Origin: Chiloscyllium plagiosum
Taxonomy: Eukaryota
Length of the DNA stretch: 64,000 bases
Direction: 5' to 3'
NCBI RefSeq assembly: GCF_004010195.1
Contig: NC_057734.1
Coordinates: forward strand, 44,229,606 to 44,293,605
Below are positions 23,885 through 59,482 of the stretch, piece after piece. The position numbers and the translations under genes are program-made. Position 1 is the stretch's first letter. The number at the start of each line of letters is the position of its first letter. A model generated the notes under the pieces. That model was not told the origin of the DNA. It did not search any database and saw nothing but the letters and a program-made list of their open reading frames with translations.

Positions 23885-23917
23885 TATCGATCGATCGATC
23901 GATCGATCGATCGATTG

Positions 23918-23980
<63 letters not shown>
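23885..23980. repeat. Compound microsatellite (ATCG)n(ATCT)n
   Basis: Direct reading. Confidence 0.97.
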
Positions 23981-24259
23981 CACTGATGCTAAAAGGGAAG
24001 TATTCAATCTCCTCTACCTCTCGCTGTCAACAAATTAAATATTCATTCAGGCTCCTGGGAACTCAAAACAATTAATCAAATTTACCACCCTCAGCTTTTC
24101 TCCTCTATTGAAATGTCCGCCATTCTACAAGTCAAAATTCGCTCGTTTAATTCCGGCTATGTCAACGACTATTTTACTTTGGGTTATTTCATCTTACTCG
24201 TGATGTATTTAATGCCTTTGTTGTTCCGTTTCTAGCTAAAAATGGCTGGCACACGCCCT

Positions 24260-24446
24260 ATGCAAATATAAATATACGCAGTTTGCTGAATCCAACGACA
24301 AGCTTTATGTGAACAGAGATTTGCATGCATTTTGAATATTCAATACGTTGTCAGGGCTAACACTTCTTAAGGGGAGATTTGAAAGAGTCCAAAAACACGT
24401 TGTATGAAGAAGTATTTTCCTTCTAATTTTTTATTGAATCTTTACC
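24260..24446 (+). promoter_or_regulatory. IgL promoter of V-deleted cluster: ATGCAAAT 24260-24267 and ATTTGCAT 24319-24326
   Basis: Both octamers are perfect; downstream blocks (cttaa, gatt.gaaaga, aacacgtt, accATG) align with the 55757-55870 promoter. Confidence 0.82.
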
Positions 24447-24495
24447 ATGGCTGATTGGGTTCGTGCACTCTCCGCTCTGCTGTTCTTTCTCCACA
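24447..24495 (+). CDS. IgL leader exon (MADWVRALSALLFFLH), intact, of V-deleted cluster
   Basis: Homologous to 55868-55916, same length, phase-1 donor cac a|GTAAGT. Confidence 0.88.
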
Positions 24496-24626
24496 GTAAG
24501 TATGGGTGTTTGCACTATCGCGGCTGATTACATTGTTATTTAAAAATCTGGCTAAACAGCGGTGAACTACAAGCGATATTCAAAATTGCAGAATGTGACT
24601 TATTGATATTTTCACTATTACACCAG

Positions 24627-24730
24627 GTGCAAATATAAATATACGCAGTTTGCTGAATCCAACGACAAGCTTTATGTGAACAGAGACTCAACCAAGATCC
24701 ATCTCAACATCCCCAGGGGAAACTGTGATC
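24627..24730 (+). pseudogene. IgL V exon remnant (FR1 only: TQPRSISTSPGETV) with insertion carrying in-frame TGA; rest of V and all of J deleted
   Basis: Acceptor caccAG|gt as in the intact gene; 24685-24728 aligns to about 56081-56124; TGA at 24677-24679; no Cys, WY, YYC or FGxG follows. Confidence 0.9.
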
Positions 24731-26004
24731 AGTGTTACAGCAGTAAAATTATAGAATATACGAGTTCGGTTTTGATAGTTCAAATTGTCTTTTCGGTGAC
24801 ATTGCGTGAAATGCAACAAGTTCAGATAGGGAACAGAAAATATCCTGTTATTTTTCAGCTGTTCCTCTAATAATGCAAACGCCAAATTTTACAAACGCCA
24901 CGATAAATTTGTTTGCGGCAAAACATTTATTTGGACAGTTATGTAAAATAAAGGCAAAAACCTGCTCCACTGTCATAATGTTCAACTGAACTCCGGCTGT
25001 TGCATGGCGTTACTGTTAGCCGTTTGTGATACTTGACAGACTACACAGAGAGTCACTTTCCAAATTGAAATGTCAAGAAGACTTTGCCGCCTCCCAAGTG
25101 GAACTATGAGAGCGGCACAATTTTGTTAAACTGGCAGGGGGCAGATCTGAGCCTGCTGAAGCGCTTTGAATAAGCTGACAGAGAACAACTATGTCACAGT
25201 TTTAAGTAGGCCGATCTCTACTTTTCCAAATAAGCAAACTAATAACATTTTTACATTTTCTTCGCTGCTTTACATGAAACGATCAAATGTTTAGAGTGAT
25301 TGGCATTGGCAACAGAAGCCTGTAGAGCTAGAGGCAGAGGCAGGAGACTCTGACAGTTCAGTCTCAACACATGCTATTTCATTGAGTGATATTTCATGCT
25401 CACTATCCTGGAACGTTTCTTACTGAAAATAAACATGGGAACTAACTTGCATTGATATAGCGCCGACCACGATCTGAGGACAACTAATAACACTTTAAAG
25501 CTGATTCCGCAGTTACAAATTACAAATAGAAATGCTCGGTAGTAACGGAAGAAAGATGGAAAGTTTCGTTTCGCGCACTATACAAGGTTCCACATAACTA
25601 ATGGAGCCGTCTGAAGTGATTTTGGGTGAGAGGTAAATATTGGTCAGGCCACGCGGTTTCAGTTACAGGCAGTTTGAGGCTAATTTTGTAATAAAGTTGG
25701 TTCCTACAGAACCACTGTTTGTTAGTTACAGAGTTCTCTTTACTGTAGTTAGGAGACATGACACCGTGATCCCAACAATGTTCCCAAACAGCGTATATTG
25801 TTGTACTGTATGTGTACGAACTGTCTTTTGATGGTTTACACATTAAATTTCAGGGCGCGAGGACTGGGAACATCAAGGGGAATCTCGTGGATAGTAGGAA
25901 AGCAGCAAATTCAGTTGTACAGAAATGCAACGATCAGGCCAATATGAGCACTACCGTGCACCGAATGTTTTGCGTTAAATGTTGCAGCGTTTTTCTTCGG
26001 TTAG

Positions 26005-26284
26005 CATTAGATTAAATTAGATTGGATTCTCTACAGTGTGGAAATAGGCCCTTCGGCCCACCAAGTCCACACCGACCCTCTGAATGCACCTAACACTATG
26101 GGCAATTTAGCATGGCCAATTCACCTGACCTGCACACCTTTGGACTGTGGGAGGAAACCGGAGTACCCGGAGGAAACCCACACAGACACAGGGGGAATGT
26201 GCAAACTCCACACAGACAGTCGTCCAAGGCTGAACCTGGGACCCTGGTGCTGCAGTGCTAACCACTGAGCCACCGTGCCGCCCC
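26005..26284 (-). mobile_element. HE1-type SINE in the intron of the V-deleted cluster
   Basis: Absent from the paralogous intron near 10660, so inserted after duplication. Confidence 0.92.
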
Positions 26285-26625
26285 AATTACTCGCAATTCC
26301 AATTTGTTGTGTTTTACCTTTTCTGTAACTACTCACAGTATTAATCGCCCTTGTATTTCACATTGTTTCAATTTCCTCCTCAGAATATCCTTACGCGCCT
26401 TGGCATGTAGAAAGTGGGAAGATCATCTCAGATCATAGCTTTTTGACACCGTCCGTTAATGGTTGCTCGGTTAAACCCAACGATGCTCCGGTCAACTAAA
26501 TTCCTCAGAGTTTTCCAGACTGAAATTTTCTGAAATTTTCAAATATTTAATAAACGTGAAACATTTATTCCGACAGATATGCTAATTAATAATCCGATAC
26601 TCTTCGACTTATTTCTATTTTTCAG

Positions 26626-26948
26626 AACCACGAGTCCCTTCCGTTTCCCTCCTTCCGGCTTCATCGGTTCAAATCACGGAAAAGAACATGGCAACCCTGG
26701 TGTGTTTGGTGAGCAGGTTTAACCCGGGTGCTGTGGAGATTGAGTGGACGGTCGATGGCAGTGTGAGAGGGAATGGCGTAGAGACCAGTCGGGTACAGCA
26801 GGAAACGGACAACACGTTCAGTGTGAGCAGCTATCTGACCCTGTCAGTCTCAGAGTGGAACTCACACGAATTTTACTCCTGTGGGGTTAAACATGAGACT
26901 CTAACAACCCCACTTCAAAAAAGTATCGCGAAATCTAGTTGTATTTGA
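26626..26948 (+). CDS. IGLC: IgL constant exon, open reading frame intact (orphaned from V)
   Basis: Acceptor tttttcAG|aa; 323 nt like the functional C; both domain Cys, Trp and terminal Cys kept; 18 of 106 aa differ from the 59160 copy by manual count. Confidence 0.9.
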
Positions 26949-27115
26949 TTCAAAGATCTTATGTATTAATTTGTTATGCTAGCGGCAAGTTTTGTGTAAC
27001 ATCAAACAAGCTCTGTATAATCGACAATTTCAAGTCATAACAGGTTGCAGTTTATCAGTGGAGTCTCTGTATTTTACAGCGGGTCAAAGTATCAACATGC
27101 AAATACTCGCAGTAT

Positions 27116-27121
27116 AATAAA
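27116..27121 (+). terminator. Polyadenylation signal after orphan C exon
   Basis: AATAAA in context homologous to 59708. Confidence 0.6.
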
Positions 27122-28378: not shown

Positions 28379-29548
28379 AAAATGAGGACTGCAGATGCTG
28401 GGGATCAGAGTTGAGAGTGTGGTGCTGGAAAAGCACAGCAGGTCAGGCAGCATCCGAGGAGCAGGAGAAATGACATTCTGGGCATAAACCCTTTATCAGG
28501 AATGAGGCTTGTGCGTCGGGACTGAGAGATAAATGGGAGGGGCTGGGGCTGGGGCTGGTGCTGGGGGAAGGTAGCTCAGAAAGCGATAGGTGGATGAAGG
28601 TGAGGGAGAAGGTGATAGGTCAGATGGGGGACTGAAGGACAGGTGCAAAGGGTGGTGCTGAGTTGGAGGCTTGGGACGAGGATAATGTGGGGGGAGGGGA
28701 AACGAGGAAGCAGTTGAACACCATATTTTCCCTGTGTGGTTGCACGGTCCCAAGGTGGAATATGAGGCATTCCCCCTTCAGGCGTCAGGTGGTAATGGTT
28801 TGGCGGTGGAGGAGGCCCAGGATCTGTATGTTCTTGTTGGGGTGGGAGGGAGAGTTGAAGTGTTCAGCCACGGGGAGGTGGGGTTGGTGGGTGCAGGTGT
28901 CCCAGAGATGTTCACTGAAATGATCCACAAGCAGGCTTCCTGTCTCCCCGATGTAGAGGGGACCAGACCAGGTGCAACTGACGCAGTAGATGACATTGGG
29001 AGAGGTACATGTAAATTTCTGATGAATGTGGACCGACTCCTTGGGGCCTTAGATGGAGGTGAGGGGAGTGGTGTGGGCACAGGTTTTGCACTTCCTGTGA
29101 TGGCAGGGAAAGGTGCCAGGAGTAGGGTGTAGGCTGGTGAGGGGTATGGACCTGATGAAGGAGTCTCGCAGGAAATGGTCTTTTCGAAATGCTGAAAGTG
29201 GTGTGGAGGGAAATCTGTCTCTGGTGTTGGGGTCCGATTGGAGATGGCAGACGTGATGGAGGATGATGTGTTGTATGCGGAGGATTGTGGGTGGAAGGTG
29301 TGGACCAAGGGAGCTCTGTCCTTGTTGCATTGGGAGAGGTGGGGTTCAAGGGCAGTGGTGCGTGAAGTGGAGGAAGTGCACTGGAAGGCATCGTCAACCA
29401 CGAGGGAAAGGATATTGCAATCGTGGAAGAAGGAGGCCATCTATAACTTTCTGAGGTGGAATCCTGGGAACAGATGCAGTGGAGGCAGAAGAATTGGGAA
29501 TAAGGGATGGCGTTTTTGCAGAGGTATGTTGGGAGGAGGTGTCGTCTA
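28379..29548 (-). mobile_element. Penelope-like element, inverted 3' arm (GIY-YIG region + terminus)
   Basis: Reverse complement of ~29880-30997; PLVxTFHP, CHHRKCKTC, LYIGETG-like motifs. Confidence 0.88.
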
Positions 29549-29556
29549 GGAAGGGA

Positions 29557-30997
29557 TCCAAACCAAAGGGGTAGCCATGGGTATGCACATGAGACCCAGC
29601 TATGCCTGCCTGTTTGTTGAGTATGTGGAACTGTCCATCTTCTGCAGTTACACCAGAACCACCTGTTCCTCTGTTACATCGATGACTGTATCGGCGCTGC
29701 CTCGTGCTCCCACGAGGAGGTTGAACAGTTCATCAATTTTACCAACACCTTCCACCCAACTTCAAATTCACCCAACTCAAAAACCTCCCCCCCCCCTTCC
29801 TGGACCTCTCCATCAACGTTTCTGGTACAGACTAACCACAGACATATACTACAAGCCCACTGACTGCCACAGTTACCTAGACTACAACTCTTCCCACCCT
29901 ACCTACTGCAAAAACGCCATCTCTTATACCCAACTCCTCTGCCTCCATCATTTTCCCAGGATGAGCAATTCCAACTCAGAAAGTCCCAGATGACCCCCTT
30001 CTTCTATGATCGCACCTTCACTTCCCACATGGTTGACGATGCCCTCCAGTGTATCTCCTCCACTTCACGCACCACCACTCTTGAACCCCACCCCTCCGAA
30101 CACAACAAGGACAAAATCTCCTTGGTCCTCACCTTCCACCCCACAAACCTCCGCATACAATGAATCATCATCCACTACTTCAGCCACCTCCAAACGGACC
30201 CCACCATCAAAGGCATACTACCCTCCCCACCACTATCAGAGTTCTAAAAAGACCATTCCCTCTGCAACTTCCTCATCAGGTCCACACCCCCCACCACCGC
30301 ACACTCTACTCCTGGCAACTTTTTCTGCCACAGCAGGAAGTGCAAAACCTGCGCCCATACCACTTCTCTCACCTCCGTCCAAGGTCCAAGGGTCCTTCCA
30401 CATCCATCAGAAATTTACCTGAACCTCTCCCAATTTCATGTTCTGCATCTGTTGTACCTGGTGTGATCCCCTCTACATCAGGGAGACAGGACACCTTCTT
30501 GCAGATCATTTCAGCAAACATCTCTGGGACACTTGCAATCCACCCCCATGGCTGACATGAACTCTTCCTCCCACTCCATCAGGGATACATAGGTCCTGGC
30601 CTCCTCTACCACCAATCCATTACCACCCAACGCCTGGAGGAGGAATGCTTCATATTCCGCCTTGGGACCCTGCAACCACATAGGATAAATGTGGATTTCA
30701 AAAGCTTTCGGATTTCCCCTCCCCCCAACTTATCCCAGTCCCAAGCCTCCAACTTGGCACCTCCAGACCTGTCCATCACTCCCCCCCCCACGCCCCGATC
30801 TATCACCTTCTCCCTCACCTTCATCTACCTATCGCTTTCTGAGCTACCTTCCCCCAGCCCCACCCCCTCTCATTTATCTCCCAGCCCCGACCCACAAGCT
30901 TCATTCCTGATAAAGTGCCTATGCCCAAAACGTCGATTCACCTGCTCTTCGGATACTACCTGACCCGCTGTGATTTTCCAGCACCAAACTCTCAACT
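29557..30997 (+). mobile_element. Penelope-like element, RT C-terminus + GIY-YIG, broken
   Basis: KGVAMG...PSYACLFV, YIDD, TDIYYKPTD.HSYLDY, YIRETG motifs. Confidence 0.9.
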
Positions 30998-55867: not shown

Positions 55868-55916
55868 ATGACTGAATGGGTTGGATTTCTCGCAGCACTG
55901 ATGTTCTGTCTCCACA
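55868..55916 (+). CDS. IGL: Ig light chain lambda/type II, exon 1 (leader MTEWVGFLAALMFCLH), intact gene
   Basis: Kozak-like ttcaccATG, hydrophobic signal peptide, phase-1 donor a|GTAAGT at 55917; downstream of an octamer promoter. Confidence 0.93.
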
Positions 55917-56058
55917 GTAAGTAAACACATTAATCGGCCCTATGGCTGCTTTTTACGTTGCTTCTTGTTTGTGTTGTTGCACTTGAGAATAACGGCCGTG
56001 AACGAAAAAAAAATTCGTTTTTCCAACGTGATTGACCTATGACGTGTTGCTTCACCAG

Positions 56059-56400
56059 GTACATACGGGGATCCTGCACTGACTCAACCAGGATCCATTT
56101 CAACATCCCCGGGGCAAACTGTGAAGATCACCTGCACCATGTCCGGAGGCAGCATCGGTAGCTACTACGCGAGCTGGTACTGGCAGAAACCCGGCAGTGC
56201 ACCGGTGTTGGTTTGGGACGAGACCCTCGAAACTGCCTCTGGAATCCCAGACCGATTTACCGGGTCTGTGGACTCATCGAGTAACAAGATGCATTTAACC
56301 ATCACCAACGTGCAATCGGACGACGCCGCCGACTATTACTGCGCGGTAGGAGGTAGCGGAATATTGACATTTGGAAAAGGAACCAAATTGAACCTGAGCG
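56059..56400 (+). CDS. IGLV: Ig light chain exon 2: germline-joined V-J ([25 protein letters not shown]...WYWQKPGS...[23 protein letters not shown])
   Basis: Acceptor caccAG|gt; canonical V-set Cys, Trp and DYYC motifs run directly into J motif FGKGTKL with no RSS or intervening DNA; phase-1 donor g|GTAAGT at 56401; resembles shark lambda-like light chains. Confidence 0.96.
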
Positions 56401-57272
56401 GTAAGTAAATTATCGGTCAACTCAACACTAGGAAAATCACCGAATCGAAAACTCCAGTGCCGAGTCTCGGCTGGTGATTGTATCTCGACAGTCAAAGCCC
56501 CGCTCCAAACATTCAGTACCGTAATTACAATTTTCGCGCGACGCCGTTTCCATTCCACTGAAAGCATCACCGCCATAGAAACGCCGTCCCCAGTGAGAGA
56601 CGGCGGAAGGGCAGTGTGGCGTTTTGCTGCAAAACCCTCTCATTTGTCTCGAAGCAGCGAAAGCCACACAGTCCAAGATTTTCAGTTCTAGCTTTCACAT
56701 TAATCCTGATAACTAGAGTGAGCGCATTTTTTTTTGCACTGGGCTCAGCAGGTTGATCAACTTTGATCCTTTTTCTGCGTTAACGCACACACAGGCAGGG
56801 TTCTTGTTTTCTTCGTAAATCATAGGACCAGTTGCGCCTGTTCGCTTAATTGTTCGGACATGTTTCAGAATGGGTTTTTCAGGTCATTATCCCTGTGTTT
56901 GCGCACGTGCTGCTGAATGTGTAGTTAGTTTCAGTGATGCGGTGTTAAAAACTGAAAATGCAGATATTCAAACGCTGTGTAATATCATTATTTAGCGGCA
57001 CAGGGTGAAATGGGCTTAGACGCAATATAAAAGAGAAAGGCGTCCTTTCGCTATACTTGTTCTTTCTTCAAACACATCTCAGGAGAAGGAATATTTACCG
57101 TAAAATACTTTGCGCTTTGAAAATGTTTTAGAAAACTGTTGAATAATCCCGCGTGACGCTGTCCGCTTCAGTGTCAGAATGTTCAACTATAGTCCAGATC
57201 GTCCAGGAGTTGTGGTAAAGGAACGTTTGACTGATTCCTCTCAATTTCAACGTGTACACTTTACCGTTGTAG

Positions 57273-57590
57273 AGGGCAGCACGGTAGCTCAGTGGTTAGC
57301 ACTGCTGCCTCACAGCACCGGGGTCCCAGGTTCGATTCCAATCTTGGGCAACTGTCGGTGTGGAGTTTGCACATTCTCCCCGTGTCTGCGTGGGTTTCCT
57401 CCGGGTGCTCTGGTTTCCTCCCACAGTCCAAAGATGTGCAGGTCAGGTGAATTGGCCATGCTAAATTGCCCATAGTGGTAGGTGCATTAGTTAGAGGGAA
57501 GTGGGACTGGGTGGGTTACTCTTCGGAGGGTTGGTGTGGACTTGTTGGGCCGAAGGGCCTGTTTCCACACTGTAGGAAATCTAAAAAAAA
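57273..57590 (+). mobile_element. HE1-type SINE in J-C intron
   Basis: gggcagcacggtagctcagtggttagcactgctgcctcacag head, full body. Confidence 0.93.
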
Positions 57591-58709
57591 GAATCTCTCA
57601 GAATGTGACTGGATTGTTTATTCGAGACGGGTAACTCTGGCGCTGGTTATACGCGCTGATGTGCTTAACTTTGGAACTCAGTGCCAGAACGTATTGGTTC
57701 AGATTCTAGGTCAAGAATTGGAATAAGAACTATTTTAATCTTCAGATTATATAAACTGTTTCACACCGTGTTTGCAGCTCACGCTAGTCGGCGCGGACGG
57801 TTAGTTAAAAATAGAAGAAATTGTAACAATCCTGCTTTGAGATTGTTACAACGAGGCTGCATTTTATTTATAGTACCATGAGAATAATTCTGTTTAATCA
57901 GAAGAAAGAGAATAAAGAAGTTGCTCAACATTACAAGATATACAAGCTTGAACGTAGGAGTGGTGTAGGGCTGGGGAGGCCGGAGAGGGATGGTGGGGGA
58001 GTGAAGGAGAGTGACGTAGTGATCAGATGAGCGCGGATGGTGCCCAAAGAGAGAGCAGCTCAAGGAATTAAGACTGGTACAGTATGTAACACAACCTCAG
58101 GCCAGGCCAGTGGCTGTCATTGCATACTGTTGAAGTGCAGTCATTTCTGTAGTTTAAAAACCGCGAGGCCATTCACCGGTAAATAGCCCTGTGATAACGA
58201 GCTGTTGTCTTTAGCGATATTGTTGGCCCGGGTCATTTGTGTTTGCATTTCGACGACAGTGATGGATTCTGGTTATTCAATAAGGACACAGTTGGTTACA
58301 ATGTTTTCAACTATTTGTTGGAAACGCATTCGTTTTGTTGAAACAGTATCTCCTAACACTCTGATGACACGGATGTCTCCGATTCTGGTATTTCGAATGC
58401 GATGGGAGAGCCCTCTGTGATTTTCCAATGTTGTCGCTGACAGGGGTAGGAGTGGGAAAGATGCAATCGATCTGAGCCGTAGGGTTAGTAACTATACAGA
58501 AATACAACTAACAACCTAAACATCCCACTCTCAACCACAGTCAAAAGCAAGAATTAAGAATAAGACCAGATTGGTGACAATGGCGTGTATGGAATACGTG
58601 TCCCAAAATGTTGTTTTGACAGCAGTGATTCCAGATTCTGTAACAAATTCTGATCTGCCGCTTTTATTTTGTGTCTAATCATCGGTTCCTGGGAGACTAT
58701 AGCAGGCTG

Positions 58710-58890
58710 CAAAAAAATTGCAGATGCAGAAAATCTGAGACAAAAAGCAGAGAGTGTTGGAGAAACTCAGCAGGTCTGGCATTTTCTATAAAGAGAAAAG
58801 CAGAATTGACGTTTGGAGTTCAATGACTTCGCGGGATTTTCTCTCTACAGACAATGTCAGACCTGCCGTGCTTCCCCAATGCTCTGTCGT
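58710..58890. mobile_element. Decayed fold-back Penelope-terminus-like element in J-C intron
   Basis: aaactcagcaggtctggca arm and inverted cagacctgccgtg arm, similar to 11860-12084. Confidence 0.55.
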
Positions 58891-59159
58891 GTCCACATTT
58901 ATATATTTTTCGTTTTAAATGTTCTCACTTTAGAGAATCTTCATTTGGTACCTCACAGTTGGCAAAAATACAAACATCATCTCGGGTTATAGCTTCCCGG
59001 GAGCTGCACATCTCAGGTTCCAGTTTAATTTACATCAAACTCCTCCATTCTATTAAACACCTCGTAGTTTTAAAGAGTGACATCGAATTTTAAGAGATTT
59101 TAGGAAAGTAAAATATTAATTCCAGTTTTATTACAATTTCATTTATTTCTACTTTACAG

Positions 59160-59482
59160 AGCCACGGAGACCCACAGTTTCTCTCCTTCCGCCTTCATCG
59201 GTTCAAATCACGGAAAAGAACACGGCGACCCTGGTGTGTTTGGTGAGCGGTTTTAACCCGGGAGCTGTGGAAATCGAGTGGTCGATAGATGGCAGTGTCA
59301 GGGGGGATAATGTTGAGACCAGTCGGATCCAACAGGAGACGGACAACACGTTCAGTGTGAGCAGTTATCTGACCCTGTCAGCCTCAGAATGGAACTTACA
59401 CGAACTTTACTCCTGTGGGGTTAAACACGAGACTCTGACAAATCCACTCCAGGGAACTATTGCGAGATCCAACTGCATCTGA
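59160..59482 (+). CDS. IGLC: Ig light chain exon 3: constant domain (EPRRPTVSLLPPSS...ATLVCLVSGFNPG...YSCGVKHE...SNCI*)
   Basis: Acceptor tttacAG|ag; C1-set Cys/Trp/YxCxVxH and penultimate interchain Cys; 49+342+323=714 nt gives an open 237-aa chain plus stop. Confidence 0.96.

Follow-up and report, generated by a model that had tools for sequence, protein, structure and literature searches.

Mammalian lambda5 (IGLL1) is homologous to the J-C part of a light chain, has at its N-terminus a charged unique region that contains a GPRC motif, and works together with VpreB; in the account that PMC9614664 gives of this gene, it has been found only in eutherians. In mouse, kappa chains that have lost the V domain by exon skipping cause ER stress and plasma-cell death, and the passages of PMC6941761 devoted to them treat them as toxic by-products. 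For sharks, the relevant part of PMC5192425 describes the lambda (type II) light-chain isotype as germline-joined in all species studied, and lists as an open question how heavy chains are tested in fish without lambda5 or VpreB. In the open-access literature, we found neither a shark light chain described as V-less nor any account of the locus treated here.

This locus is a light-chain unit of Chiloscyllium plagiosum, found at positions 24260-27121 of the 64,000-nucleotide window, the whole stretch of DNA analysed, to which all coordinates without the prefix C25 refer. The initial annotation considered it a V-less cluster that might encode a surrogate or free C-domain chain, with the caveat that a recently killed pseudogene was at least as likely. 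Our analysis backs the caveat, since the lesions of the unit are absent in a relative that is ~3.5% diverged. With a probability of roughly 0.87, this germline-joined lambda (type II) cluster is a non-functional pseudogene of recent origin, its VJ exon having been destroyed since the lineage of the unit and that of this relative diverged. The leader, promoter and C exon would still be intact because the lesion is young and too little time has passed for them to decay. Several characters nevertheless argue against a pseudogene, namely a leader and a C exon without stop codon or frameshift, the retention of the octamers and the poly(A) signal, and a C-exon dN/dS within the range of intact gene pairs.

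A lambda (type II) cluster without a VJ exon

The features of the unit, and of two neighbours used for comparison, are as follows:

24260..24267, + strand: upstream promoter octamer; the same octamer pair is present in the intact units B and B2
24261..24319, + strand: promoter stretch, template of the copy in the V exon (59/59 identical, spacing 367)
24319..24326, + strand: downstream promoter octamer, in opposite orientation
24447..24495, + strand: coding part of the leader exon, 49 nt, phase 1 (79% identity with the leader of unit B)
24496..24626, + strand: leader intron, with a GTAAGT donor at 24496 and an intact V acceptor
24628..24686, + strand: templated promoter copy, with 7-nt and 2-nt microhomology at its ends and an in-frame TGA at 24677-24679
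24685..24728, + strand: V framework-1 remnant, 44 nt (91% identity with the V of intact unit B)
24726..24728, + strand: deletion junction with 3-nt microhomology, from comparison with the contigs of the close relative
24729..26625, + strand: remaining J-C intron, with an AATAAA at 24947; homologous to the introns of the dead siblings D and E and of one relic
26626..26948, + strand: lambda (type II) constant exon, open
27116..27121, + strand: poly(A) signal AATAAA
9538..11128, + strand: sibling unit D, without an identified leader or V; its truncated C has lost the first Cys and the Trp
55868..59482, + strand: intact germline-joined paralog B (leader, VJ and C; 237 aa), used as control

The initial annotation had described octamers, leader, GTAAGT donor, C exon and AATAAA as intact around a destroyed VJ exon, and we located all of them again. 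Octamers, leader, V acceptor, framework-1 remnant and C follow one another in the order of a leader - VJ - C layout. The leader ATG at 24447 sits in an ACCATGG context, and the open C exon retains, as had been reported, both intradomain Cys residues, the Trp and the penultimate Cys, which bonds the heavy chain. The V exon now consists of 8 native bases, the 59-nt promoter copy and 44 nt of framework 1, whereas the deletion removed the remainder of V, J with its donor and the 5' end of the J-C intron. In contrast with a functional light-chain gene, which has an open VJ exon with a J donor, a stop codon lies at 24677, V ends at 24728 and the donor is gone, so that a normal chain is impossible. 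What had been seen as a stop-containing insertion indeed brings in this TGA and can be defined more closely as 59 nt of the gene's own promoter, copied without a mismatch (E 3e-24).

At E<=1e-20, 109 longer homologs of the C domain were retrieved; Hemiscyllium and Chiloscyllium proteins named lambda light chains head the list, which also includes sandbar shark lambda. Identity of the C domain with shark proteins that carry a lambda light-chain annotation is 80-86%. The leader, octamer pair and framework-1 remnant match unit B, an intact neighbour in which VJ forms a single open exon and V is almost identical to that of a model from Chiloscyllium punctatum. Given the names of these homologs and the match of the V of unit B, we identify the unit by its sequence as a lambda (type II) light-chain cluster of the bamboo shark. 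As the best of the 109 longer homologs is only 86% identical, no intact annotated ortholog was found among them.

All 13 C-exon matches in the genome fall on one scaffold. Across 460 kb, comprising the window and 40 further stretches, 18 units are recognisable (one of them an intron-only relic), eight of them intact and ten broken. VJ is germline-joined in all eight intact neighbours; it is deleted in the unit, and the J of the relative was not seen. The three units with a matching intron (D, E and the relic) are all dead: none has an intact C, and 8 kb of upstream sequence contain neither a leader nor a V.

Other features of the region were recorded alongside. A tetranucleotide microsatellite occupies window positions 23886-23981, ~280 nt upstream of the first octamer, and an inverted pair of ~1.15 kb and 79% identity (28409-29550 and 29876-30997), probably two copies of a mobile repeat, lies just downstream of the unit. 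At C25:44135000-44257000, one arrangement recurs three times with ~40-kb spacing, namely a cluster of a distant lambda subfamily on the minus strand and then a relic of the unit's subfamily on the plus strand; this is likely a tandemly duplicated block. The three clusters of another subfamily at C25:45200000-45251000 have GTGGGT as leader donor and GTGAGT as J donor, not GTAAGT. Two broken V units, at C25:44304221-44304557 and 44354966-44355325, have no C exon behind them in the stretch examined; the Chiloscyllium punctatum gene model P0112 fuses the ortholog of B to the first of them, which indicates the same gene order. Shark light-chain fragments are also filed as hypothetical proteins of Aeromonas veronii and Salmonella (P0001 and P0003, on contigs of 652 and 410 bases), likely through contamination or mislabelling.

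Predicted transcript and product

Both the leader and the C exon are in phase 1, and translation agrees with the initial annotation that their joining yields an open product of 123 aa. This product would follow from skipping of the V remnant, but skipping is not forced, because the V acceptor at 24627, which the initial annotation did not mention, is intact (12/17 pyrimidines, versus 10/17 in the intact unit B). If the promoter fires, transcripts would likely take this acceptor and, as translation of the leader spliced to the V remnant indicates, stop after 33 codons. Alternatively, they might end at the intronic AATAAA (24947-24952), which lies 320 nt behind the V acceptor and could turn the V remnant into the last exon; this signal is missing from the relative, which has other letters at 24950 and 24951. 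They might also skip to C, as a by-product without a selected role. A unit of this structure might thus yield a short last exon, a spliced form prone to decay, or a product skipped to C.

The last of these outcomes corresponds to a transcribed pseudogene, a sub-case of the pseudogene reading in which skipping of the donor-less V remnant gives an unselected and probably degraded C fragment. We regard it as rather unlikely. The promoter and leader are still 97% like those of the relative (12 differences in 435), and in the 400 nt behind the V acceptor the highest-scoring donor reaches 5 of 9 (true donors, 7 of 9), so that skipping to C is plausible. The MPC 11 myeloma offers a parallel, since it reportedly produces a kappa constant-region fragment with the leader joined to C. 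V-exon skipping is also described for mouse kappa alleles that bear stop codons (PMC6941761, in its passages on such alleles). Against skipping, the V acceptor is intact and is followed not only by the intronic AATAAA but also, at 1006 nt, by a donor scoring 7 of 9; either would compete. The homolog search returned three candidates of 58-186 aa, none of which is a leader-C protein. Comparison of positions 24200-26000 with three sequencing runs besides that of the relative (X1, X7 and X8; about 2% and 6% of the last two were read), which brings the runs covered to 4 of 18 listed, produced 0 records and has no bearing on expression in either direction.

Age and origin of the lesion

DNA contigs from one of the four listed DNA runs of the relative (X3) were compared with the unit over positions 24200-26000, with 59 differences in 1710 aligned bases (3.5%). 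Contig 1 runs from 24634 to 24685 through 14 other letters, in frame, instead of the 50 of the unit, and therefore lacks the promoter copy. Contig 4 matches from 24726 onward and has ~1010 other letters before this position, so that the deletion junction is also absent, whereas contig 3 continues past 24728 into V-like sequence. As the relative has neither the promoter copy nor the deletion junction, both lesions are younger than the split, and the perfect identity of the copy with its template is in line with this age. The initial annotation had reasoned that an ortholog with intact VJ would speak against a V-less chain, and had suggested conservation of the layout in related sharks as a check. 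The first of these was found in large part, as a relative that carries neither lesion and continues into V-like sequence, although its J lies beyond what was seen; as to the second, the V-less layout is absent at 3.5% divergence.

Some decay of V may predate the deletion. In hand translation, contig 3 has Ser at the first V Cys and differs from the B-type V, and the V remnant of the unit has Arg where B has Gly. The assignment of contig 3 is likely rather than certain, since contig 1 and the B-type contig 2 both end at 24725.

All three lesion junctions bear microhomology (7, 2 and 3 nt). Such microhomology is a mark of template switching or microhomology-mediated repair, and the junctions thus point to a process of this kind. 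At the start of the V exon, synthesis would have switched by way of the 7-nt match to the promoter, 367 nt upstream, copied it and returned to V via the 2-nt match; 40 nt further on, the 3-nt match would have joined V framework 1 to the J-C intron. The route of damage was probably microhomology-guided repair or replication slippage. We also considered an RSS-mediated deletion and rejected it, since exact matching located no heptamer close to the junctions, and a nonamer was missing from the whole window.

An assembly error, or an allele private to the sequenced animal, would also account for lesions that are missing in the relative, and the assembly does comprise 101,977 contigs. Nevertheless, the scaffold that carries the unit is 54.6 Mb long and has no N in its vicinity, unit and relative are collinear outside the lesion, and junctions of 7, 2 and 3 nt are far below the overlap lengths on which assemblers join sequences. 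We consider this explanation improbable, and a private allele would still be a pseudogene allele.

The open leader-C frame and known V-less chains

The reading put forward initially, a selected V-less light chain, surrogate-like or a free C domain, that pairs with heavy-chain CH1 through the kept Cys, appears highly improbable. It is favoured by the open 123-aa frame with intact promoter, donor, acceptor and poly(A) signal, by the existence in sharks of IgW heavy-chain transcripts spliced from leader to C, and by the fact that, according to the passages of PMC5192425 on the subject, a surrogate light chain is not known from fish. The proposal itself, however, was built on the phase match and on an intact C exon, the latter expected for a young lesion. 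When the leader is joined to C in the intact clusters of the 460 kb, an open product of 122-125 aa results in 8/8, in keeping with the match of leader and C phases as a general property of Ig exons. The phase match is therefore uninformative on selection, and the open frame of the unit is no more than chance would give. In 4000 runs of a neutral simulation (half of the 3.5% substitutions, with the indel rate from contig 4 of the relative), leader and C stayed open in 0.45 of the runs when the lesion was dated to the split and in 0.68 when it was given half this age, so that, with a young lesion, their intactness is expected without selection.

The C exon itself does not alter this conclusion. 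Its dN/dS, suggested in the initial annotation as a check, is 0.19-0.22 against four intact close paralogs (intact pairs, 0.05-0.35), but it is confounded as a test of function, since the dS of 0.36-0.52 reflects the long time before the lesion when the gene worked. At columns conserved in at least 90% of 53 aligned shark homologs (of the 109), the unit has 5 changes, the intact B 6 and the intact B2 4, and 3/53 homologs have at least 5; we discarded this count as a mark of decay because the unit does not stand apart. The previously reported Pro to Ala and Gly to Arg changes at conserved sites are both present. The Ala replaces a Pro found in 53/53 of the aligned shark homologs (97 Pro, 1 Ser and 11 not parsed across all 109). 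A search of solved structures retrieved generic Ig C domains only, and this Pro is also present in human C-lambda. Neither the dN/dS nor the conserved-column counts support decay of C; the two results simply do not demonstrate selection after the lesion.

A product skipped to C would also lack the cleavage residues normally supplied by the V exon. By a simple rule, as opposed to a trained predictor, (-3,-1) cleavage sites free of Pro are confined to residues 24 and 30, both within the first C strand, which likewise argues against a selected chain, as does the death of mouse plasma cells through ER stress caused by V-less kappa chains (PMC6941761, in its part on these chains). In its fullest form, a germline V-less lambda chain, the first in fish, born within the last 2% of divergence, needing no rearrangement, spliced from leader to C in B cells and kept by selection as heavy-chain chaperone or surrogate, it would be relevant to the testing of heavy chains in fish in the absence of lambda5 and VpreB, but we find it very hard to credit.

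As a pseudogene, the unit represents ordinary birth-and-death turnover in the shark light-chain array. Its value lies in being a cleanly dated death of a germline-joined cluster, by a promoter-templated switch and a deletion with readable microhomologies, and in the natural experiment that it offers on leakage of V-less transcripts from clusters of this kind.

Like the unit, lambda5 is V-less, with a lambda-C-type domain that has the heavy-chain-bonding Cys. Lambda5, however, has a J-derived strand before C, whereas the leader of the unit joins C directly, J being deleted; it has a charged unique region with the GPRC motif, neither of which occurs in the 123-aa product; it has VpreB as a V-only partner, whereas both V units without C within the 460 kb are broken; and its V-less gene is conserved across species, in contrast with a layout that the close relative does not share. 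All these differences count against a selected chain, and the unit lacks every lambda5 hallmark that could be tested. The V-domain-less kappa chains of truncated-Ig exclusion have the leader joined to C after a V stop or donor loss, which is the product predicted for the unit, although they come from somatic non-productive alleles in mouse or human B cells, whereas the lesion of the unit is in the germline. Direct splicing of the leader to the first C exon would likewise be shared with V-less IgW of dogfish and nurse shark and with V-less secreted IgD of catfish; according to the part of PMC5192425 that treats them, these are heavy chains seen as cDNA, and the IgW form, whose function is open, arises by alternative splicing of intact genes.
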